A DNA stretch of 64,000 nt, taken from Candidatus Forterrea multitransposorum CG_2015-17_Forterrea_25_41 (GTDB lineage: Archaea; Iainarchaeota; Iainarchaeia; Iainarchaeales; CSSED10-239). Where the stretch lies: contig CP045477.1 in the NCBI GenBank assembly GCA_009392915.1, positions 320,001 through 384,000 on the forward strand, given 5' to 3'. Position numbers and translations under genes: made by a program. Below, one piece after another: positions 3,951 to 62,446 of the stretch. Position 1 is the first letter of the stretch. Each line of letters begins with the position of its first letter. The notes below the pieces were generated by a model. The model saw only the letters and a list, made by a program, of their open reading frames with translations. It did not search any database and was not told the origin of the DNA.

Positions 3951-4919
3951 TTATCTTTTAATAATTTTTTCTAATAAACAAAACATTTTATTTCTAACAT
4001 TTATTTTACTATCATAAATATTTATTCTAGAAATATTTGGAAGATATTCAGATCTATTTTCAGAGCAAGCAACTTTATATAATTCCTCAATCCATTTACT
4101 TGCATACCTTTCGTTTACAAGCAGCTGATACCTTGTATTAAGTTCATAGTCATCCAATATCCTTCCTTCACTTCTTTTTTCTCTAAATTTAGTATACTCT
4201 TCTATTTCCCATTTTTCAGGTCCACAAACAATAAATAAATCTGTAGGAGGATATTTAAATGCAATTTTATGCCCAGGAAGAGATATATAGTCTTTTAAAG
4301 AAACTCCACTTTGGTTATATTTTTCATCATATATTTGATAGCAAGCGGATTCTTCAGATCTACTTCTTACAATAATTTTATTATGATCTCTTAATATTTT
4401 TCTAATTCTATAAAATTCATCTATTCTATATGCTTGGTGTAAAAGTACAGCTGAATAAGAATCATGTGTAGGGTAATTAGTTTCTAGAAAATCAAAAGAA
4501 CTTCTATTTTGTTCAATAACTCTATTTGTTTGTCCTGCACTTCTTTTAGAAGGTTCTTCTAATATCCAAACATCTGCAGAATCAGGATTAATATATGTAG
4601 TCACTTTATTTTTTTTAAAAGATCCTACAAGTAAGTCATTATTTCTATTATATCCAGAAAGTAAATAATAGATTTCAAATAATAATTTACTTTTATCTTC
4701 GTCTTTGATTTTTTTTGATTTTAAAAATTCTTTAAAAGATATAAATTCTTTATTATATTCTTTAAAAATTTCTGCATGAAATAATAAATCAATTTCAGTC
4801 CCTCTTAAGTCTTTTACAATATAATTTTTACTTTTAAAAAAATCAATTGTATCTTGAATTTGTGTACTTGTACCAGACATATCTGGCCCACATATAACAA
4901 TATCAGTAAATAATTTCAT
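3951..4919 (-). CDS. P-loop NTPase, thymidylate/deoxynucleoside kinase-like
   Basis: N-terminal Walker A-like 'ICGPDMSGTSTQ'; 322 aa. The family assignment is weak. Confidence 0.3.
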   Translation of the reverse strand: MKLFTDIVICGPDMSGTSTQIQDTIDFFKSKNYIVKDLRGTEIDLLFHAEIFKEYNKEFISFKEFLKSKKIKDEDKSKLLFEIYYLLSGYNRNNDLLVGSFKKNKVTTYINPDSADVWILEEPSKRSAGQTNRVIEQNRSSFDFLETNYPTHDSYSAVLLHQAYRIDEFYRIRKILRDHNKIIVRSRSEESACYQIYDEKYNQSGVSLKDYISLPGHKIAFKYPPTDLFIVCGPEKWEIEEYTKFREKRSEGRILDDYELNTRYQLLVNERYASKWIEELYKVACSENRSEYLPNISRINIYDSKINVRNKMFCLLEKIIKR

Positions 4920-9204: not shown

Positions 9205-10521
9205 ATGAAAAATCCATTACAGTTTATTAAAAAAAGTTCTATTACAGAAAGAGCAAAAAGCATAAGTCATCTTTTACACAATAAATTATATTTAAAAGTA
9301 TTAATTGCTTTATTTTTTGGTATTTTAGTTGGATTTATTTTAGGACCAACATTTGGTTTTGTTTCAACAGATATTTCAAAGATTATAACTGAATGGCTTG
9401 CTCTTCCAGGATATGTTTTTTTAAGTTTAATACAAATGATTGTAATTCCTTTAATTTTTGCATCAATAATAAAAGGTATTGCTTCTAATGAATCTTCTTC
9501 TAAATTAAAAAAAATAGGATTATCTATTACAATTTATTTTATAATTACAACTGTAATTGCAATAATAATTGGAATTGGTGTTGCAAATATTATTCAGCCA
9601 GGAAAATATATAACTTCTGATCAAATTTCAGCAATTAATGTTGATGGTTCTCAAGAAGTTGTTACCACTGAGATGCCAAAAATTGAAAAAATTCCTGAAA
9701 TGATAGGAGATATTTTTCCAAAAAATGTTTTAAGTTCTATGCTAAAAGGGGATATGCTCCCTATAGTTATTTTTTCAATAATTTTTGGTATTGCCTTAAT
9801 TAATCTTAAGAAAACTCAATCAAAACCATTACTTGATGTTTTAAGTTCTATTCAAGATGTCTCAATAATGATTGTTAAGTGGGCTATGGTTCTTGCTCCT
9901 TTAGCAGTTTTTGGACTTATGGCAAAAATTAGTAGTCAGTTTGGGATAAGTACTCTTGTAGGTTTAGGTGTATATATTTTAACAGTAATGCTTGGTTTAA
10001 TATTATTAATTTGTGTTTATTTATTAATAGTTTATTTTTCAACAAAACAAAAACCATTTACTTTTTTAGGAAAAATATCAGAAGCACAATTACTTGCTTT
10101 TTCAACTTCAAGTTCAGCTGTAGTAATGCCTTTATCAATTAAGACTGCTGAAGATAATTTAAAAATTAGAAAATCTATTTCACAATTTATAATTCCTTTA
10201 GGAACAACAATTAATATGGATGGAACTGCTCTTTATCAAGCAATTGCTACAATTTTTTTAGCACAAGTTTTTGGTATTGAAATTAGTTTTTTAGCTTTAG
10301 TTTTATTAATTGTTACAATTGTAGGTGCATCTATTGGAACTCCAGGAACTCCAGGAGTTGGAATTGTAATTCTTTCAATGGCTTTAACAACAGTTGGCGT
10401 ACCATTATCAGGAATTGCTTTAATAATTGGGGTTGATAGAATCCTTGATATGATGAGAACTACTGTAAATGTAACTGGAGATTTAACAGCAGCAACTTTT
10501 ATAAATAAATTTATTAAGTGA
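9205..10521 (+). CDS. Dicarboxylate/amino acid:cation symporter (DAACS, GltP/GltPh family)
   Basis: Hallmark 'NMDGTALYQ' motif; about 8 TM plus reentrant loops; 438 aa. Confidence 0.85.
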   Translation: MKNPLQFIKKSSITERAKSISHLLHNKLYLKVLIALFFGILVGFILGPTFGFVSTDISKIITEWLALPGYVFLSLIQMIVIPLIFASIIKGIASNESSSKLKKIGLSITIYFIITTVIAIIIGIGVANIIQPGKYITSDQISAINVDGSQEVVTTEMPKIEKIPEMIGDIFPKNVLSSMLKGDMLPIVIFSIIFGIALINLKKTQSKPLLDVLSSIQDVSIMIVKWAMVLAPLAVFGLMAKISSQFGISTLVGLGVYILTVMLGLILLICVYLLIVYFSTKQKPFTFLGKISEAQLLAFSTSSSAVVMPLSIKTAEDNLKIRKSISQFIIPLGTTINMDGTALYQAIATIFLAQVFGIEISFLALVLLIVTIVGASIGTPGTPGVGIVILSMALTTVGVPLSGIALIIGVDRILDMMRTTVNVTGDLTAATFINKFIK

Positions 10522-10531
10522 TAATTAAAAT

Positions 10532-11086
10532 ATGTATTCTTTATTATTCTTAACAATTTATGTTTTAATCTATTATTTTATTATTTATAAGAAAACTAAA
10601 CATTTAGATCTTACAAAAGAAACTATTGAAATGTTTAAAACTGATTTTGCAACTTCTCTTTATATTTCTATTTTTTATTTAGTTTTACTGGTTTCTTTAG
10701 TTTATTATGTTTTCTTTACAAATTTTTTTAAATTAGAAATGTTAGATATTCTTGGTGTTTTTTTAATTATTTTTTCAGGAATAATTGAATATCATGGAAT
10801 AATTAGTTTAAAAGATAATTATTATCCTCAAGTTGGTATGGAAAAATATTTAGTAACTAATGGTATTTTTAAGTATATAAGACATCCAATTTACTTATCA
10901 GGAATTTTTTTAGGAACTGGCATTATTATTCTTTTTTCAAAGGATATTTTTATTTATTTATTTATAATAATAATTATAACTATTATTTATAAAGTAGAAT
11001 CTGAAGAAAAATATTTACTTAAAAGATTTAAAGATTATAAAAAATATACTAAAAAAAGTTATAAGTTAATACCTTATATTTACTAA
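10532..11086 (+). CDS. Isoprenylcysteine carboxyl methyltransferase-family membrane methyltransferase
   Basis: 'IRHPIYLSGIFLGTG' RHPxY motif of the ICMT/PEMT family; 184 aa; multi-TM. Confidence 0.6.
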   Translation: MYSLLFLTIYVLIYYFIIYKKTKHLDLTKETIEMFKTDFATSLYISIFYLVLLVSLVYYVFFTNFFKLEMLDILGVFLIIFSGIIEYHGIISLKDNYYPQVGMEKYLVTNGIFKYIRHPIYLSGIFLGTGIIILFSKDIFIYLFIIIIITIIYKVESEEKYLLKRFKDYKKYTKKSYKLIPYIY

Positions 11087-15345: not shown

Positions 15346-16048
15346 GTTTTTTAAATTTTAAAAGATTAGGTATTTTTTTAAAAGATAAAGAATTCTTTTT
15401 TTCTTTTAAGTGATTTGACAATAATCTTTTAACTCTTTCTTTATTTGGATTTAAGTCTCCAAGTTTAGTAAAATATCTATCCCTTATTTTACCATTTATT
15501 GTAATCAATCTATCGATTTTTAAAACTGTTTCTTGAATTTCAATATTTGCTTTCTGATATTGAATTCTTTCTAAAACTAAACTTTTTAATTTAGCTTTGT
15601 CTTTTTCTTTTTTTATTTTCTCTTCTAGTTTTTTTATTATTTTTAAATTTGTTTCTAATTGCTTTTTTTTATTTTTAATATAATTTTTATTATATTCATT
15701 TTGTAAAGAAACTGGATCATATACTATTTTTTTTCCAGTCTTTAGTGAAGCTTTAATAAAAGAATCTAATATTATTTCATAAAAAGGTTTTTCTAAGTTT
15801 TTATAATTAAAATTATTTTCTTCTTGTTTTACACCTTGTATAAAATTAATAATTATTTTATTAGATGTTGGTGAATTAGTGTAATTAATAAGTCCAAGAG
15901 GATTATTTTTATGATATAATACTAGTATTGGAGAATAAAGTTTAGATTTATAAACAAATCCATCAGGAAAAACCCAATAACTTTTTTTTCTAAAATAAAA
16001 ATCATTACTGGGTTTATTTTTTAATAGATCTAAAAATATATTATTCAT
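15338..16048 (-). CDS. Hypothetical protein
   Basis: 236-aa ORF; overlaps the permease stop by 8 nt on the opposite strand. Confidence 0.3.
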   Translation of the reverse strand: MNNIFLDLLKNKPSNDFYFRKKSYWVFPDGFVYKSKLYSPILVLYHKNNPLGLINYTNSPTSNKIIINFIQGVKQEENNFNYKNLEKPFYEIILDSFIKASLKTGKKIVYDPVSLQNEYNKNYIKNKKKQLETNLKIIKKLEEKIKKEKDKAKLKSLVLERIQYQKANIEIQETVLKIDRLITINGKIRDRYFTKLGDLNPNKERVKRLLSNHLKEKKNSLSFKKIPNLLKFKKPK

Positions 16049-51514: not shown

Positions 51515-51643
51515 ATCCCTCCTCCCAGATTTGAACTGGGGATCTTCCGGTTACCGCCATTAAAAGAGATTAAAAATCTCTTTAATTTTAGTATAATCTA
51601 AAATGTCTACAGCCGGACGCACTAGGCCGCTATGCTAAGGAGG
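51515..51643 (-). tRNA. tRNA-Tyr (GUA) with ~55-nt intron after position 37
   Basis: Acceptor stem 5'-CCCUCCU/AGGAGGG-3'. Anticodon loop CUGUAG|A with an intron between G37 and A38; the intron contains the hairpin AAAGAGAUUUUUAAUCUCUUU. T arm CCCAG-UUCAAAU-CUGGG. Discriminator A; no encoded CCA. Confidence 0.7.
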
Positions 51644-51688
51644 GACTATTTACTATATATTATATTAGCAAAACATATTTAAATAAAA

Positions 51689-54027: not shown

Positions 54028-54320
54028 ATAGTGGTTTACTATAAGCCGCTTTATGTATTTAATAGCAATTAATCTAAGCGGAGATTTAAAAAAACTCCTT
54101 GCACCAATTTTTGCTTCCTGCATGATTTCAGCCTCTTTCTTCTCCCCTCAGTTTTACACATCACAGGTTTTTAAAAGGAAAAGAACCGTCTTGTTTCTGT
54201 TCAGGCATGCAAAAGCCCCATTAAGGACTTTATTTTTTTTTTAAAATATTTGGTGAGCGGACCTTCCTCAGATATTTAGAATTACTCTAAATAAATGTGC
54301 TAAACATAAACCACTATATA
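54028..54320 (-). ncRNA. rnpB: Candidate RNase P RNA
   Basis: GC-enriched ~293-nt island in an AT-rich intergenic region. Terminal helix: 54028-54038 'atagtggttta' pairs with 54307-54317 'taaaccactat' (P1). On the minus strand, a P3-like hairpin AUUUAGA-GUAAU-UCUAAAU is followed by 'GAGGAAGGUCCGCUC' (CR-I-like; E. coli GAGGAAAGUCCGGGCUC). 'ACAUAAAGCGGCUUAUAG' (CR-V-like ACAGAAnnCGGCUUA) sits just before the 3' P1 strand. The two strands can form P4 with a bulged U. Confidence 0.55.
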
Positions 54321-56781: not shown

Positions 56782-56937
56782 TTAAGCCATTAATATTTCT
56801 GTATGACCAAAACATCCACAAGAGTCAGAACCGCAATCTCCTGCTTGTAAAATATCTGTATGTGTGAAACATCCACAAGAGTCTGAACCGCAATCTCCTG
56901 CTTGTAAAGTATTTAAATTAAAATTTTCTGTATTCAT
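56782..56937 (-). CDS. 51-aa Cys-rich peptide with internally duplicated 19-aa motif
   Basis: Not in the ORF track. Minus-strand translation: MNTENFNLNT-LQAGDCGSDSCGCFTHTDI-LQAGDCGSDSCGCFGHTEI-LMA*. GAGGT SD lies 8 nt upstream. A 57-bp tandem DNA duplication underlies it. Confidence 0.4.
   Translation of the reverse strand: MNTENFNLNTLQAGDCGSDSCGCFTHTDILQAGDCGSDSCGCFGHTEILMA
56812..56925. repeat. 57-bp tandem duplication (2 copies)
   Basis: 'aacatccacaagagtc[a/t]gaaccgcaatctcctgcttgtaaa' recurs with period 57. It encodes the duplicated peptide motif of the 51-aa Cys-rich ORF. Confidence 0.7.
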
Positions 56938-56997
56938 ATTTTATAACCTCTTTATATATTTTAATTATTAAAAAAAATAGTTTTTAAAAATAATATT

Positions 56998-57025
56998 CGC
57001 CTGCAAGCTTGGCGGAAAGCTTAAG
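56998..57025 (-). repeat. 28-nt conserved tRNA 3'-trailer element (copy A, after tRNA-Ala)
   Basis: Minus-strand sequence CUUAAGCUUUCCGCCAAGCUUGCAGGCG immediately after the discriminator. 27/28 identical to the sequence after tRNA-Gly. Contains a self-complementary AAGCUU...AAGCUU hairpin; a U-rich tract follows. Confidence 0.7.
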
Positions 57026-57098
57026 TGGACTCTGCGAGATTCGAACTCGCGGCCTCGTCCTTGCAAGGGACGCGCTCTACCAGCTGAGCTAAGAGCCC
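57026..57098 (-). tRNA. tRNA-Ala (UGC)
   Basis: GGGCUCU acceptor with the G3:U70 identity pair; anticodon loop CUUGCAA; T loop UUCGAAU; discriminator A; no CCA. Confidence 0.85.
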
Positions 57099-57360
57099 TA
57101 ATAACTATTGAACCAATATATTATATATATTATAGAACAAAAATATTTATAAACACATCAGATTTATTTTTAATCAAAATTATAAAAATAAAATTATGGA
57201 CTGATAAATATACTTTTAAAAAAATATTATTAAATAAAAAAAGAAAAATTTCTTATAATTAAAGAAATTTTGATGTGTGGAAGAAAAACAAACACTTCAG
57301 GTTAGGTAAGTTTTTAAAACTTTTAAAATAACAACTAACATTTAGTCATTATATAAAATA

Positions 57361-58856
57361 GGAGGTGATCCGTCCGCAGGTTCCCCTACGGACACCTTGT
57401 TACAACTTAGTCTACCTCGCGAAATATAGAATAACTTTATCCTTTAGTAGAGTAAAGTTCATCAACACTCCACTCGGTTGGCTTGATGGGCGGTGTGTGC
57501 AAGGCGCAGGGACATATTCACCGCGTGATAGTGACACGCGATTACTGGGGATTCCAGCTTCATGAGGGTGAGTTGCAACCCTCAATCCGGACTTAGACTA
57601 AGTTTTTGAGATTGCCACCCCTTTTCAGGTTAGATACTCTTTGTCTTAGCCATTGTATGCCGCGTGTTGCCCAGAACATTCACGCTATACAGACCTACCT
57701 TCGCCCACTCCTTCCTCATTGTTACCAATGCAGTCCTATTAGAGTGCCTTCTTTTGCAAGCAAAAAAAGTAGCAACTAATAGCATGGGTCTCGCCCGTTA
57801 CCTGAGTTAACAGGAAGCTTCACAGTACGAGCTGACGATGGCCATACAGCAGTTCTCAGCGCATCAGGTAACCCCTTCAGAGTGACCATCATATTGCTGT
57901 CAGCCCTGGTAAAATATCTGGCGTTTCATCCAATTAAACCGCAGCATCCACCCCTTGTAGTGCACCCCCGCCAATTCCATTAAGTTTCAGTCTTGCGACC
58001 ATACTTCCCAGGCGGTGAATTTAATGGTTTCCCTTCGGCCCTGAGCTAACTCGTAGTTAACCCAACACCTAATTCACATCGTTTACGGCTGGGACTAACC
58101 GGGTATCTAATCCGGGTTGCGCCCCCAGCTTTCGTATCTCACTGTCGAATCCGTACTCGTTAAGCGCCTTCGCCACAGGTGGTCTTTTTAGTATCTTAAG
58201 ATTCTACTCCTACTCTAAAAATACCCTTAACGTCTTCCGGTTCCTAGTCATGCCAGTATCTTTTGCAATTCAACTAGTTAGGCTAGCTGCTTTCACAAAA
58301 GACTTAACAAACCAGCTACACACGCTTTAAGCCAAATAATGCTGGATACCACTTGGGGATTACGTATTACCGCGGCGGCTGGCACGCATATTGCCCTCCC
58401 CTTATTCACATAGTTATTCACACTATATAAAAGCTTACATAGTAAGCACTTGGAATCTCTTTATCACGATTTCTCGCATTGTAAAAGTTTCGTAACTGCT
58501 GCACCCCGTAGGGCTAGGGACATTATCTCAGTTCCCTTCTCCGGGCTACCTCTCTCAAGGCCCGTACAGATCTTCGGCTTGGTAGGCAGTTACCCTACCA
58601 ACAACCTAATCTGGCGCAGTCCCATCCTTTCGCGCCAAAGAAGCATGATTCTTTGACCTTTAAAATAGTAATCATTCCAGATTTACTTTTTTATAGAGCA
58701 TTATACTCAGTTTCCCGAGTTTAACTCTTCAAAAGGGTAGGTTGACCACGTGTTACTGAGCCGTTCGCCAAAACCTCTCATAGCTGAGGCTTTAAGACTT
58801 GCATGTCTTAGTCAGATTCCAATAGCAGTATCCACCAGCAGGATCAGCTGGAATTG
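57361..58856 (-). rRNA. 16S rRNA (archaeal type)
   Basis: Plus strand shows the RC of the 16S 3' end ('aggaggtgatccgtccgcaggttcccctacggacaccttgttacaactt') at 57361. It carries the RC of GTGCCAGCCGCCGCGGTAATAC at ~58366-58387. The 5' end is ATTCCAGCTGATCCTGCTGG (RC at ~58837-58856). Length ~1.49 kb. Confidence 0.9.
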
Positions 58857-59126
58857 GATAATAAATTTGCACACTTTTCTAACACAGAGTGTTTTTGCTA
58901 AAAATGTTTTCGTCTTATCTTCCACATCAGACTCAAAATAACTTGAGACCTCATAGTTTCCTAATAAATTAGGATCAAATGAGTTACTTTGCTAAATAGT
59001 TTAGCGCAGTAAAATAATACTAGTAGAGGTAAGTTTTTAAAGCTATTGTTTTTTACTTAGTAAAATTAGATTTTTTGAATAACTTATATAAATACTTTTC
59101 GCTTTAATCTGTAAAAAAAGTATTTT

Positions 59127-59585
59127 TTATTTTAAATCATTATTTTTTAAAATTTTTTTCAAGATTTTATCTTTATTTTTTTGATCAATAGGATGTCCAA
59201 CTAATGTTGTAATATAACCAGGATATTTTTCAAAATATACCCCACCAGATAATTCTCCAAACTTTTTATCATTAATTTTATGCATTGGATAAAGTTTAGT
59301 ATGTATATGATCTACTCCTTGTCCTTCAAAAACCATTGCAACTCTTTTAACCTTAAGACCTTTTTCTAAAATCTTAGCAACTTTTTTTGAAACTAACAAT
59401 AGTCTAGTATATACTTCTTCTGGAAGATTAAAAACATAAGAAGAATAATGTTTTTTTGTTAAGACTAAAGTTTGACCTTCAGTATTAGGATTACCATCTA
59501 ATATTGCAATAAAATCTTTATCTTCATAAACAATAGAAGCTTGCAGTTTTTTATCTGCAATCTTACAAAAAACACATTCTTTCAT
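59127..59585 (-). CDS. HIT-family (Hint-like) protein with variant triad
   Basis: 'CVFCKI ... VYEDKDFIAILD ... GQTLVLTKKH' matches the Hint N-terminus. The triad reads 'DHIHTKLYP', so the third His is replaced by Lys. Confidence 0.55.
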   Translation of the reverse strand: MKECVFCKIADKKLQASIVYEDKDFIAILDGNPNTEGQTLVLTKKHYSSYVFNLPEEVYTRLLLVSKKVAKILEKGLKVKRVAMVFEGQGVDHIHTKLYPMHKINDKKFGELSGGVYFEKYPGYITTLVGHPIDQKNKDKILKKILKNNDLK

Positions 59586-59631
59586 AAATTAAAAAAATAG
59601 TAAGAGAGAAAAGTAAAATGCATCACTTTAT

Positions 59632-59763
59632 CTATGATGCAGCTCTTTTTCTTAAGTATCTTCTTTCTCTTCTTGTTTCTCTCATTTTTTTCTTTTTCCA
59701 TTTCCATCTTTGTCTGGATTTTGTTTTCTTAAATCTACTTGAATCTTTTTTTCTAGTACCCAT
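59632..59763 (-). CDS. 43-aa highly basic protein (possible ribosomal protein eL41-like)
   Basis: Not in the ORF track. MGTRKKDSSRFKKTKSRQRWKWKKKKMRETRRERRYLRKRAAS*. Upstream leader 'ATTAAAGGCGAAAATTCATGG' resembles the lysS and L40e leaders. Confidence 0.4.
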   Translation of the reverse strand: MGTRKKDSSRFKKTKSRQRWKWKKKKMRETRRERRYLRKRAAS

Positions 59764-59818
59764 GAATTTTCGCCTTTAATTTTAATATTAATTTTTTTTC
59801 CTTAACATATAAAGAAAA

Positions 59819-59892
59819 TGCTCTCGCCGGGATTCGAACCCGAGTCTCTGGCTTGAAAGGCCAGAATGATTACCGGACTACACCACAAGAGC
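59819..59892 (-). tRNA. tRNA-Glu (UUC)
   Basis: Acceptor GCUCUUG/CGAGAGC; anticodon stem CUGGC/GCCAG with loop CUUUCAA; T arm UCGGG-UUCGAAU-CCCGG; discriminator A. Confidence 0.8.
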
Positions 59893-60109
59893 ATAAAGTC
59901 TTTTAGATTGATTTATTTTATAAAACTACAATAAAATAAGAAATATTATTTTGTAGTTTATAATATAAATAAGTAACGATTTATTTATATACTGTTTGTT
60001 TTTTTACTTCAGAGAAAAAACTCTTGTTTTAAATACCTTTTGTATGTTAAATATATAACATAATATATTAATATTTATAACAATTTAAAAATTATTAAGG
60101 TGAAACAAA

Positions 60110-60262
60110 ATGGAAACAATTGCAAAAGAAAGAAGATTAAAAAACATATGGGTTTGTATGTCATGTAATAATACAATGAGAAGTCCAAAGAAAATGGAAT
60201 ATTGTAATAAATGTGGTGCCATAAAAATCAGAGCTAAAAAGAAAGGAAAGAATGTAAAGTAA
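60110..60262 (+). CDS. rpl40e: Ribosomal protein L40e
   Basis: Not in the ORF track. METIAKERRLKNIWVCMSCNNTMRSPKKMEYCNKCGAIKIRAKKKGKNVK* matches the L40e zinc-ribbon pattern (..ICMRCNARN....C.KCG...LR.K). Leader 'ATTAAGGTGAAACAAAATGG'. Confidence 0.75.
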   Translation: METIAKERRLKNIWVCMSCNNTMRSPKKMEYCNKCGAIKIRAKKKGKNVK

Positions 60263-60264
60263 TT

Positions 60265-61062
60265 TTATTTTCTTTTAATTGGTCTAAAAATTTTTTTAGA
60301 CTCTCTACTTTTTATAAAAACATTTTTTTTAGAATCAAGAAGTCTTTTCTTCTTGATCTCAAAATTTTTTTCTATTTTTTTCTTAATATCATTTTCAATT
60401 ATATTTTCTAAAGAAATATTTTCTAACTTCAAGCCACCTTTAAGACCAGCCTGTATATATTGTCTTAATTGTCTATAATATTGAGAATTATCTTTATTTG
60501 TTTTAAAAGGAAGTTCTAAAAGAATATTTATTTTATTTTTATCAGCATATTTTTTAAATAAAGAAACAACTTTAACTCTCCAATTTTCATTAAGTTCTTT
60601 ATTTAATTTATCTAAATAAATTCTATTTTTTTCTAATAATTCAAGTTTATTATTATTTTTATTACTACCAATATATCCTTGAATATTACTTATTCTTAAA
60701 GTTATTTTATTATTCTTATTAATAGTAAAATAAATACCAAAAGTTGAAATTACATTCTTATTATAAGAAATTTGATATTCAATAATTGATTCAGGATGTA
60801 AATTTTCAAAAGGATTTACACGACTAACTTTAAATTTGTCATTTTTACCTAATTGTAAATTTTTTAAATTATTTTTTTCTAAAAATTGTAAATTTAATTT
60901 AAATGAATTTAAAATTTCTTCTTTAGAATGATTAGTATGCATAAGATCTATTAAATCAGATAATAAATGAACTTCTTTTGCATTTAAAGAACGTCCAACA
61001 TTATTTACAACATACTTTTTAATATCTAATTCATGCATCATAATAAATCTCTTTAAAACCAT
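60265..61062 (-). CDS. Hypothetical protein
   Basis: 265 aa. Its start overlaps the fen1 stop by 10 nt on the same strand. Confidence 0.35.
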   Translation of the reverse strand: MVLKRFIMMHELDIKKYVVNNVGRSLNAKEVHLLSDLIDLMHTNHSKEEILNSFKLNLQFLEKNNLKNLQLGKNDKFKVSRVNPFENLHPESIIEYQISYNKNVISTFGIYFTINKNNKITLRISNIQGYIGSNKNNNKLELLEKNRIYLDKLNKELNENWRVKVVSLFKKYADKNKINILLELPFKTNKDNSQYYRQLRQYIQAGLKGGLKLENISLENIIENDIKKKIEKNFEIKKKRLLDSKKNVFIKSRESKKIFRPIKRK

Positions 61063-62096
61063 TTATCAATAGTTTTTTGTTTATTTGAATTAGTTCTAGC
61101 TGTAATAAATTTATCTAAACTATTTACAACTCTTTCTTGAGAAAAATTAAACCTATCTATTAATATATTTTCAATTTTATTACGATCAAACTCAGATTTA
61201 CTTATTTCTGGATTTTTTGAAATTAATGGATTTAAAAATATATTTTCAATTTCTTTATAATCAAAATTAACTACTTTATTTTTTTCTTTTAAAACTTTTT
61301 CAATACTTTCAAAACTATTATTTTCTAATACTAGTTTTAAAGCAGTTTTTGGGCCAATACCTTCAACTTTATCATTAAAATCAGTTCCAATAAGCATTGA
61401 AAGATAAATTAATTTTTCTCTTGAAATATTTAATTTTTCTAAAGTTTCTTTAAGATATATTATTTCAGGATTAATATCAACATAAACATTCTTTGAAGGA
61501 ATTTTTTTCTTTCTTGAAACAGTTAAATTTCTAACAAGATTTGGAGAACCAAATAATAAACAATCAAAATCTTGAGAAACAGTAAAATCTAATATATTTT
61601 CTTTTGTCATGTAAGAAATTTGAGCTTCAGCTTCAGAAGGAGCATTAATTATAGAGATACCCATTGCTTTTAATAGATCTTTTGATTCTTCTATTATCTT
61701 TTCATCAATTGAAGTTATTCTTTTTGAAAACTTATTCATATCTTCAAGATCTCCTCTTAAAACAGCATCTTTAAAATGTTCTTTAGCTATTTCTTTTCTA
61801 GATTTTCTTTCATCTTGTGTTTTTTGCTTTAAATCTATACTTTTTCCATCATATACAAAAAAAACATCAATGTCATTAGATAAAAGGTTAAGCATTCTAT
61901 AAAAAAGACCATTTAAATGGCTAGTAATATCACCATTTTCGTTCTTTAAAGGTTCTCCATCTACACCTCTAATTGTAGTTAAGAACTGATATAGAATATT
62001 ATAAGCATCAAAACCAAATTTTTTATGTTTATGTGTATGATTAAACTCAAATTTCTGTTTTGATTCTTCTATTAGTTTTCCAATTGCAACTCCCAT
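61053..62096 (-). CDS. fen: Flap endonuclease 1
   Basis: 'GEPLKNENGDITSHLNGLFYRMLNLL' XPG-N; XPG-I 'GISIINAPSEAEAQISYM'; H3TH region; 347 aa. Confidence 0.9.
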   Translation of the reverse strand: MGVAIGKLIEESKQKFEFNHTHKHKKFGFDAYNILYQFLTTIRGVDGEPLKNENGDITSHLNGLFYRMLNLLSNDIDVFFVYDGKSIDLKQKTQDERKSRKEIAKEHFKDAVLRGDLEDMNKFSKRITSIDEKIIEESKDLLKAMGISIINAPSEAEAQISYMTKENILDFTVSQDFDCLLFGSPNLVRNLTVSRKKKIPSKNVYVDINPEIIYLKETLEKLNISREKLIYLSMLIGTDFNDKVEGIGPKTALKLVLENNSFESIEKVLKEKNKVVNFDYKEIENIFLNPLISKNPEISKSEFDRNKIENILIDRFNFSQERVVNSLDKFITARTNSNKQKTIDKWF

Positions 62097-62188
62097 ACTA
62101 TATTATTAAATAGATAAAGTATATAAACCTTTATCTGCATATAATATTTATAATGATAAAGTTATTTTTATCATTCTTTAAAAAAAAA

Positions 62189-62260
62189 GCACTCGTAGTA
62201 TAGTGGTTAGTATGTGAGCCTTCCAAGCTTAGGACTCGGGTTCGAATCCCGACGAGTGCA
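62189..62260 (+). tRNA. tRNA-Gly (UCC)
   Basis: Acceptor GCACUCG/CGAGUGC; D loop AGUGGUUA; anticodon loop CUUCCAA; T arm UCGGG-UUCGAAU-CCCGA; discriminator A. Confidence 0.85.
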
Positions 62261-62288
62261 CTTAAGCTTTTCGCCAAGCTTGCAGGCG
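62261..62288 (+). repeat. 28-nt conserved tRNA 3'-trailer element (copy B, after tRNA-Gly)
   Basis: cttaagcttttcgccaagcttgcaggcg; the inverted-orientation partner of 56998-57025. Confidence 0.7.
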
Positions 62289-62446
62289 TTGTTGACAAGC
62301 AAAGATGCTTAGTTAACAAGTATTATTTTATAATAATTAATAAGCATAAATTTAATTCTTTTTCTTCAACAAATATTTTTTATATCTAAAACAACTATTT
62401 ATAAATATAATACTTTAGTAAATATTTATATAAAAGATGATTAAAT

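Follow-up and report, generated by a model that had tools for sequence, protein, structure and literature searches.

Two transfer RNA (tRNA) genes in a 64,000-nucleotide stretch of archaeal DNA (positions 320,001 to 384,000 of contig CP045477.1; hereafter the window) are each followed directly by nearly the same short G+C-rich hairpin. The source is a 'Candidatus Iainarchaeum'-like DPANN archaeon. The shared sequence is the 28-nt trailer CTTAAGCTTT[C/T]CGCCAAGCTTGCAGGCG, which stands directly 3' of the discriminator A in tRNA-Ala(UGC) and tRNA-Gly(UCC); the hairpin itself begins 1 base after the discriminator. Comparison with relatives indicates that the 28-mer is a transcribed RNA hairpin. 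We further propose, with a confidence that stands midway between belief and doubt, that it is one of a small, lineage-restricted family of hairpins in the tRNA 3' trailers of Iainarchaeum-like DPANN archaea and aids the ending or the stability of transcripts. The near-identity of the two copies has a separate origin; most likely it reflects recent short-tract gene conversion between paralogous trailers. The two copies and the sequences that adjoin them are as follows.

57026-57098, minus strand: tRNA-Ala(UGC), called by ARAGORN (Rfam tRNA 71.7 bits), the last gene of a 16S-spacer-tRNA-Ala unit.
56998-57025, minus strand: trailer copy 1, after tRNA-Ala(UGC); first base C, loop UCCGCC.
57024-57017, minus strand: 5' arm of copy 1, UUAAGCUU.
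57016-57011, minus strand: loop of copy 1, UCCGCC.
57010-57002, minus strand: 3' arm of copy 1, AAGCUUG-C-A.
57001-56998, minus strand: tail of copy 1, GGCG.
56970-56997, minus strand: U-rich run past copy 1, reading AAUAUUA, U5 (56990-56986), AAAAACUA, U8 (56977-56970).
62189-62260, plus strand: tRNA-Gly(UCC), called by ARAGORN (Rfam tRNA 67.6 bits).
62261-62288, plus strand: trailer copy 2, after tRNA-Gly(UCC); loop UUCGCC, the rest equal to copy 1.
62286-62331, plus strand: a second, longer hairpin on the tRNA-Gly(UCC) side, GCGUUGUUGACAAGCAAAGAUGCUUAGUUAACAAG, then UAUUAUUUUA.

An earlier note, made from the letters of this DNA, had drawn attention to the near-identical trailers, and the likeness is real. 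The copies agree at 27 of 28 bases and differ solely at loop position 11 (C after tRNA-Ala, T after tRNA-Gly). Even when up to 3 mismatches are allowed, the window has no third copy, and 100 dinucleotide-preserving shuffles of the window yielded no match, which sets the pair apart from chance. Two independent assemblies of the organism carry both copies with these sequences; they are thus not an assembly artefact. A repeat finder stretched the inverted repeat to 58 nt at 86% identity, the extra part being the generic T-arm and acceptor likeness of the two tRNAs. The trailers have 47-50% G+C in a window of 24.7% (and a genome of about 25%), and the non-protein-coding stretches of at least 50% G+C in the window are the RNA genes and the two trailers, which extend the tRNA G+C islands.

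The two copies differ in what follows them. The oligo-U reported after the tRNA-Ala copy is present as T5 and T8, and this U-rich run is presumed from its sequence to be where transcription ends. On the other side, the tRNA-Gly(UCC) trailer has a fold energy of z = -2.3, and the entire pre-tRNA one of z = -2.9. Likeness between this trailer and a relative's tRNA-Gly(GCC) trailer runs about 14 nt past the 28-mer (...GGCGTTGTTGACA.GCAA), and the start of the second hairpin (GUUGUUGACA.GCAA) is common to tRNA-Gly(GCC) trailers; because the tRNA-Gly(UCC) and tRNA-Gly(GCC) genes are close paralogues, the additional likeness is ordinary paralogy.

The predicted fold consists of CUUAAGCUU, a 6-nt loop, and AAGCUUG-C-AG, at -6 kcal/mol; our argument for this structure comes from relatives rather than from energy. 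When 11 trailers of this genome and its relatives are aligned, a stem of 7-9 base pairs (bp) with 2-3 G-C pairs occupies the same position. Paired cells amount to 94.7% in an 11-pair structure (stem plus loop-tail pairs); sliding the partner strand by 1-3 columns lowers the figure to 20-40%. Two pairs undergo compensatory double changes (one through A-U, C-G, G-C, and U-A, another between G-C and A-U), a third stem pair alternates between U·G and U-A, and none of 500 shuffles matched the observed covariation score. The U·G wobbles hold solely on the tRNA-sense strand; the opposite strand would give C·A mismatches. Together with the high G+C, this strand preference argues for selection on a transcribed hairpin and not on a protein-binding DNA palindrome. 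The AAGCUU stem with a 6-nt loop, proposed earlier from a single genome, is in this manner backed by relatives as a stem-loop on the tRNA-sense strand.

A possible second helix joins the loop to the tail. It pairs CGCC with GGCG in hairpins of type A, whereas type B has the reverse, G:C (72.7% paired), and pairs 16-30 and 17-29 form in 10-11 of the 11 sequences; the interaction is unproven, and very few independent events bear on it. An H-type pseudoknot of loop CGCC and tail GGCG would require the lower stem to open, its comparative support is weak, and we treat it as a minor possibility. A search of the trailer against the tRNA leader and the 16S flanks, for a processing stem or a bulge-helix-bulge, found no complementarity.

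How far the family extends was traced at the syntenic fen1 locus in relatives with 97% to 57% FEN1 identity, and at this genome's own tRNA-Gly(GCC)/RPP21 locus. The hairpin-bearing loci are listed with FEN1 identity in brackets.

L071 (97%): tRNA-Gly(UCC) trailer identical to the window's; tRNA-Ala trailer CTTCAACTTTTCGCCAAGTTGACAGGCG.
L073 (79%): tRNA-Gly(UCC), then CATAAACTTCTCGCCAAGTTTACAGACA; tRNA-Ala, then type-B CTTAAGCTGGTTTCGGTCAGCTTGCACCCA and T7.
L083 (73%): tRNA-Ala, then CTTCAACTTCTCGCCAAGTTGACAGGCGTTTTT.
L077 (65%): tRNA-Ala, then CTTTAACTGGTTTCGGTCAGTTAACACCCA.
L079 (60%), 3990-4064 and 15380-15900: type-B hairpin (GAGCTGGTTTCGGTCAGCTCGCACCCA) at the 5' end of tRNA-Gly, opposite strand; G+C-rich trailers after three tandem tRNA-Ala genes.
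L081 (this genome): tRNA-Gly(GCC) trailer TCAACTGGTTATGCTCAGTTGACACGCA, type B; 9 nt on, the 3' half of the 28-mer only (AAGCTTGCAGGCGTTGTTGTCATGCAA).

All 11 family members abut a tRNA gene. Ten start 0-1 nt past the discriminator; the one exception, in the distant L079, lies at the 5' end of its tRNA gene, and L079 also has a related hairpin after tRNA-Ala(AGC). This genome carries the family after tRNA-Ala(UGC), tRNA-Gly(UCC), and, as a variant, tRNA-Gly(GCC). In L083, positions 10397-10561 after tRNA-Ala hold 3.7 tandem copies, 99% identical, of a 45-nt unit (AACTTCTCGCCAAGTTGACAGGCGTTTTTAGTTGTATATTTTAAA), each with hairpin top, GGCG tail, and T5. Two local features deserve mention in their own right. 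Three tandem tRNA-Ala genes (CGC, AGC, UGC) in L079 have G+C-rich trailers with the common motifs GGTTTCGC and GCGCAATGG. The tRNA-Gly(GCC) trailer of L081 (9906-10000, some 200 kb away from the window) forms two hairpins (z = -2.3) and extends to a T6 whose last base lies 7 nt ahead of the ATG of RPP21, an RNase P protein; with so little room for a promoter, tRNA-Gly(GCC) and RPP21, the head of a ribosomal-protein cluster, may be co-transcribed.

Wider scans with the pattern TTAAGCTTN6AAGCTTGCAGG covered one genome per species (185,579 species) and metagenomes; viral contigs were scanned for both hairpin types. The species genomes gave a single related match, in the Iainarchaeum metagenome-assembled genome (MAG) JBBISB01, where CTTAAGCTTTTAGCCAAGCTTGCAGGCG directly follows the discriminator of tRNA-Gly(GCC); L073 is apparently of the same species as this MAG, since the RPP21 protein P0121 is 100% identical. 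In the genome scan, the 671-kb contig of the sister species had a single exact match to the pattern. The metagenomes added one 92%-identical relative, L029, of the lineage of L071. The remaining matches in the species and metagenome scans were discarded as unrelated coding sequence, mostly on bacterial contigs, and 2.9 million viral contigs held nothing related to either hairpin type. A covariance model built from nine trailers was run over 262 kb of clade DNA, and every copy that rose above noise stood beside a tRNA gene; its best further match, at 17.7 bits, was the L079 hairpin by tRNA-Gly. Many dispersed copies off tRNA genes, or an absence of conservation in every relative, were the outcomes that the earlier note had set against itself. 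Neither appeared: the 262 kb held no such dispersed copy, and relatives keep the structure.

The near-identity of the two window copies is best understood by comparison with L071. The intergenic DNA around both tRNAs is about 99% identical between the two genomes, and the tRNA-Ala 28-mer has 6/28 substitutions against 10/461 in the flanks (P = 2.6e-5). Five stem differences comprise two compensatory pairs and a U·G to U-A change. The tRNA-Ala stem of this genome equals its own tRNA-Gly(UCC) stem; that of L071 is common to the distant L083 and to this genome's tRNA-Gly(GCC) hairpin. Clustered, templated-looking changes, each equal to another copy, make short-tract gene conversion the best explanation. 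Constraint on primary sequence does not appear to be the cause, as relatives keep the structure with other stems, loops, and tails. The conversion probably ran from tRNA-Gly(UCC) to tRNA-Ala, 5.2 kb apart, and L083 suggests that the tRNA-Ala copy was the overwritten one. This direction is uncertain, however, because the tRNA-Ala copy differs from its presumed donor at position 11 and genomes combine stems and loops differently. A 35-nt indel (window 56997/56998 versus L071 15128-15162) coincides exactly with the 3' end of the hairpin's GGCG tail after tRNA-Ala. The suggestion of a shared 3' signal thus suits the structure, which relatives retain, and not the near-identical sequence, since the tRNA-Ala of L071 carries CTTCAACTTTTCGCCAAGTTGACAGGCG.

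Among the functions that had been put forward, a shared role in 3' termination or processing fits best. RNA polymerase would transcribe through the tRNA and the hairpin; hairpin and downstream U-tract would help to end the transcript, to shield the 3' end of the precursor, or both; tRNase Z would then cut past the discriminator, and the hairpin would be discarded. Such removal would accord with what is established about archaeal tRNA 3' processing. Among the relatives, a T-run directly follows the tRNA where the hairpin is absent, and a U-run follows the hairpin where it is present. The former arrangement is seen after tRNA-Gly(UCC) in L085 (83%), L075, L083, L076, L077, L078, and L080, and after tRNA-Ala in L076, L078, and L080. 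As to the latter, L073 has the hairpin, ACCCAA, then U7, and L083 repeats its hairpin-GGCG-UUUUU unit after the last gene of the 16S-tRNA-Ala unit, arranged like tandem terminators.

By analogy, the element may work most like a bacterial intrinsic terminator after a stable-RNA gene, in an archaeal setting. It resembles the Rho-independent terminators of bacterial tRNA and ribosomal RNA (rRNA) operons in placing a G+C-rich stem-loop, then U-rich sequence, at the end of a stable-RNA gene. It also resembles intrinsic terminators in its compensatory evolution and its occasional tandem arrangement (L083), and covariation argues for the stable G+C-containing stem-loop by which such terminators are recognized. 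It differs in its host, whose polymerase stops at oligo-T without need of a hairpin, in the distance of the window's U-tracts from the stem, and in a hairpin that begins at the tRNA 3' processing site. In the archaeon Haloferax volcanii, hairpins precede mapped 3' ends, and with one of them 59% of transcripts were terminated in vivo (PMC7237163). Those hairpins are spread genome-wide, often within coding regions, in a G+C-rich halophile, and do not form a sequence-related tRNA-trailer family. The literature that we searched held nothing specific on tRNA trailer hairpins in archaea or Iainarchaeota.

Several observations weigh against this proposal. The energy of the isolated hairpin is no better than that of shuffles (z = -0.3), and loop and tail are conserved beyond pure structural need (UUCGCC...GGCG; GGUUUCGGU...ACCCA). 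The U-tract in the window sits off the stem, 7 nt past the GGCG tail after tRNA-Ala and past the second hairpin after tRNA-Gly; it comes within 0-2 nt of a stem in L083, if the alternative CGCC/GGCG stem is used (GGCGUUUUU, four times), and nearly so in L073. A simple terminator scan flags neither window copy, and the tRNA-Ala hairpin of L077 lacks a nearby U-run. Moreover, tRNA-Glu, tRNA-Tyr, tRNA-Val, and RNase P RNA never bear the G+C-rich element and have plain T-runs; tRNA-Glu trailers have an A/U-only hairpin in most relatives. Finally, several close relatives, including L085 at 83% FEN1 identity, do without the hairpin, which makes it dispensable and leaves room for no more than a small benefit.

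If termination or 3'-end protection is nonetheless its role, some extremely AT-rich DPANN archaea would end their tRNA and 16S-tRNA transcripts with the help of bacterial-style hairpins in addition to oligo-T, in genomes where T-runs are ubiquitous and hence little informative. The element would offer a concrete, mutable archaeal case of hairpin-assisted termination and of how tRNase Z processes structured trailers. It also makes a clean, small example of concerted evolution, with near-identical 28-nt copies 5 kb apart and compensated differences in a sister genome, and a caution that identity within a genome need not mean sequence-specific function. Its practical importance is modest: it is short, lineage-restricted, and dispensable in close relatives.

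A selfish or near-neutral palindrome is a possible but unlikely alternative. Here, a miniature hairpin cassette would land at tRNA ends and spread or be homogenised through recombination or template switching, without serving the cell. Such a history would account for the patchy presence among close relatives and the reassortment of stems, loops, and tails between loci and genomes, as well as for a tRNA-Gly(GCC) gene that combines a type-B hairpin with only the 3' half of the 28-mer. The tandem amplification in L083, the near-identical type-B hairpin on the opposite strand at a tRNA-Gly 5' end in L079, and the 35-nt indel at the hairpin's 3' edge relative to L071 fit as well. Yet just 2-3 copies per genome were seen, none off tRNA genes, and there are no terminal repeats, target duplications, or transposase. 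The compensatory changes and strand-specific U·G pairs bespeak selection on RNA pairing, which an element acting as DNA alone would not need, and high G+C is kept in a 25% G+C genome. Bacterial repetitive extragenic palindromic (REP) elements and their mosaic arrays (BIME) are likewise short, G+C-rich, imperfect intergenic palindromes with concerted evolution and occasional tandem amplification; they differ in having tens to hundreds of dispersed copies and a dedicated transposase. With no off-tRNA copy in the 262 kb searched, the element does not behave as a dispersed REP-like palindrome or miniature inverted-repeat transposable element (MITE).

Less probable still, in our view, is that the trailer is a released small RNA or a 5' cap-like structure: tRNase Z would free an RNA that begins with the hairpin, folds into a compact CGCC/GGCG pseudoknot, and either acts in trans or guards a downstream mRNA from 5'-to-3' decay. 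Most variants do have loop-tail complementarity, with the C-G to G-C flip between types, but this covariation amounts to essentially one evolutionary event over 3-4 G+C-rich bp. Up to column 242 of the L071 alignment, the tRNA-Gly(UCC) trailer and its second hairpin are free of substitutions; the flanking intergenic DNA is about 99% identical anyway, so that conservation is not exceptional. The RPP21 gene lies within about 95 nt of tRNA-Gly(GCC), with little promoter room; after tRNA-Ala, by contrast, strong T5 and T8 runs part the hairpin from the next gene, which has TATA-like and Shine-Dalgarno-like sequences of its own. Close relatives lack the element, and no Rfam family matched the trailers apart from one chance-level match (Rfam 15, E up to 10: SpF41_sRNA over tRNA-Gly and trailer, E = 3.6, 23.9 bits where the gathering score is 52). 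Units cut by tRNase Z are known from the tRNA-like element upstream of 5S rRNA in Haloferax and from eukaryotic tRNA-linked RNAs. As in those, a tRNA shape abuts a second structured RNA, and one cut past the discriminator would part the two; unlike them, the hairpin is at most a putative stable product, spans 28-60 nt, and is dispensable in relatives.

It is a long shot that the trailers represent an undescribed RNA/DNA cassette of tRNA ends in DPANN archaea, either a pseudoknot RNA released by tRNase Z with a function of its own or a miniature element that homes to tRNA ends and swaps modules. The homing element would explain the mosaic stems, loops, and tails, the L083 tandem array, and the inverted 5'-end copy in L079.

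Very improbable is a DNA site for a site-specific recombinase, with an att-, dif-, or invertase-type core, whose inverted pair would invert the 5.2-kb 16S segment. Its geometry fits a tyrosine-recombinase core site: inverted arms of 8-9 bp surround a 6-bp spacer beside tRNA 3' ends, and the two copies are inverted relative to each other. tRNA gene 3' ends are classic integration targets. The arms, however, vary by compensatory pairs and not as a conserved protein-binding sequence would, and the U·G positions break the DNA dyad. The earlier note had envisaged a substrate for recombination and inversion; when synteny of the 57-62 kb segment was compared, the order and orientation Gly(-)/Glu(+)/Ala(+) proved equal in all relatives carrying it, with no sign of inversion. 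The precomputed Pfam annotation holds no integrase or recombinase over about 10 kb on either side of fen1, the sister species' contig has its single exact-pattern copy, and an attP-like viral counterpart was dropped after the viral-contig scans returned no related sequence. Likeness to the att sites of tRNA genes extends to the 3'-end position and to dyad symmetry around a 6-nt spacer; here, by contrast, the repeat lies outside the tRNA, and its inverted copies bracket core genes (16S, fen1).

Other classes were rejected more simply. A split or permuted tRNA with a bulge-helix-bulge disagrees with a continuous stem that has a single 1-nt bulge, with two full-length tRNAs, and with folded pre-tRNAs that lack leader-trailer pairing; a CRISPR repeat disagrees with a pair of inverted copies that stand 5.2 kb apart and are both fused to tRNAs, the Rfam CRISPR matches lying elsewhere at noise level. 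H/ACA, C/D, or K-turn guide RNAs and ribozymes lack both motif and Rfam support. AGGCG occurs 10 times in the 64 kb, once before a start codon, and the tail was rejected as a Shine-Dalgarno sequence or a motif of upstream regions in general. The HindIII/AflII sites in the 28-mer carry no meaning, as the window has about 40 AAGCTT sites and relatives do not keep the palindromy.

Between the copies lie the genes that the earlier note listed (tRNA-Ala, 16S, tRNA-Glu, a HIT gene, L40e, a hypothetical gene, and fen1), with the L40e assignment resting solely on a sub-threshold full-length NCBIfam match. The note was also right that tRNA-Tyr and tRNA-Glu lack the 28-nt trailer. The window's FEN1 protein is also encoded on JGI contig Ga0100381_1000002 (3300007985) and in many other assemblies. 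The remaining RNA genes are these.

57360-58854, minus strand: archaeal 16S rRNA, between the copies (Rfam SSU_rRNA_archaea, 1353.7 bits).
59819-59892, minus strand: tRNA-Glu(UUC) (ARAGORN, Rfam); its trailer is an A/U-only hairpin of a U-run and an A-run, with no G+C-rich element.
51516-51644, minus strand: tRNA-Tyr(GUA) with an intron of about 58 nt (ARAGORN with introns allowed; Rfam 47.7 bits); plain T-run trailer.
54030-54315, minus strand: full-length archaeal RNase P RNA match, E = 7e-11, 46.7 bits where the gathering score is 84; this RNase P RNA is probably divergent or reduced and has a plain T7 run at its end.

The tRNA-Tyr gene, which serves as a control tRNA without the hairpin element, was missed by default ARAGORN and by the whole-window Rfam scan; its intron sits after the anticodon loop. 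With introns allowed, ARAGORN labels it Asn(GTT); the sequence reads CU-GUA-GA, and tRNA-Tyr(GTA) is called in L076, L077, and L079.

The 16S gene is unlinked to 23S: its unit comprises 16S, a 261-nt spacer, tRNA-Ala, and the end (57099-59126), and a HIT-family gene lies between tRNA-Glu and 16S. Two small open reading frames (ORFs) also stand near these RNA genes. The first (56782-56937, minus strand), about 60 nt downstream of the tRNA-Ala trailer, encodes 51 cysteine-rich residues that form two copies of LQAGDCGSDSCGCF.HT.IL through a 57-nt tandem duplication (88% identity). It has no Pfam or NCBIfam match; in L071, L073, and L083, an ORF of 51-52 aa is called at the matching position. The second (59632-59763, minus strand), just downstream of tRNA-Glu, encodes an extremely basic 43-aa product (MGTRKKDSSRFKKTKSRQRWKWKKKKMRETRRERRYLRKRAAS) without a family match. 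Most relatives examined have a 43-aa ORF (42 aa in L080) at the equivalent position, and the product may be an L41e-like ribosomal protein. Ahead of the ORF stands AAAGGCGAAAA, here as in several relatives.

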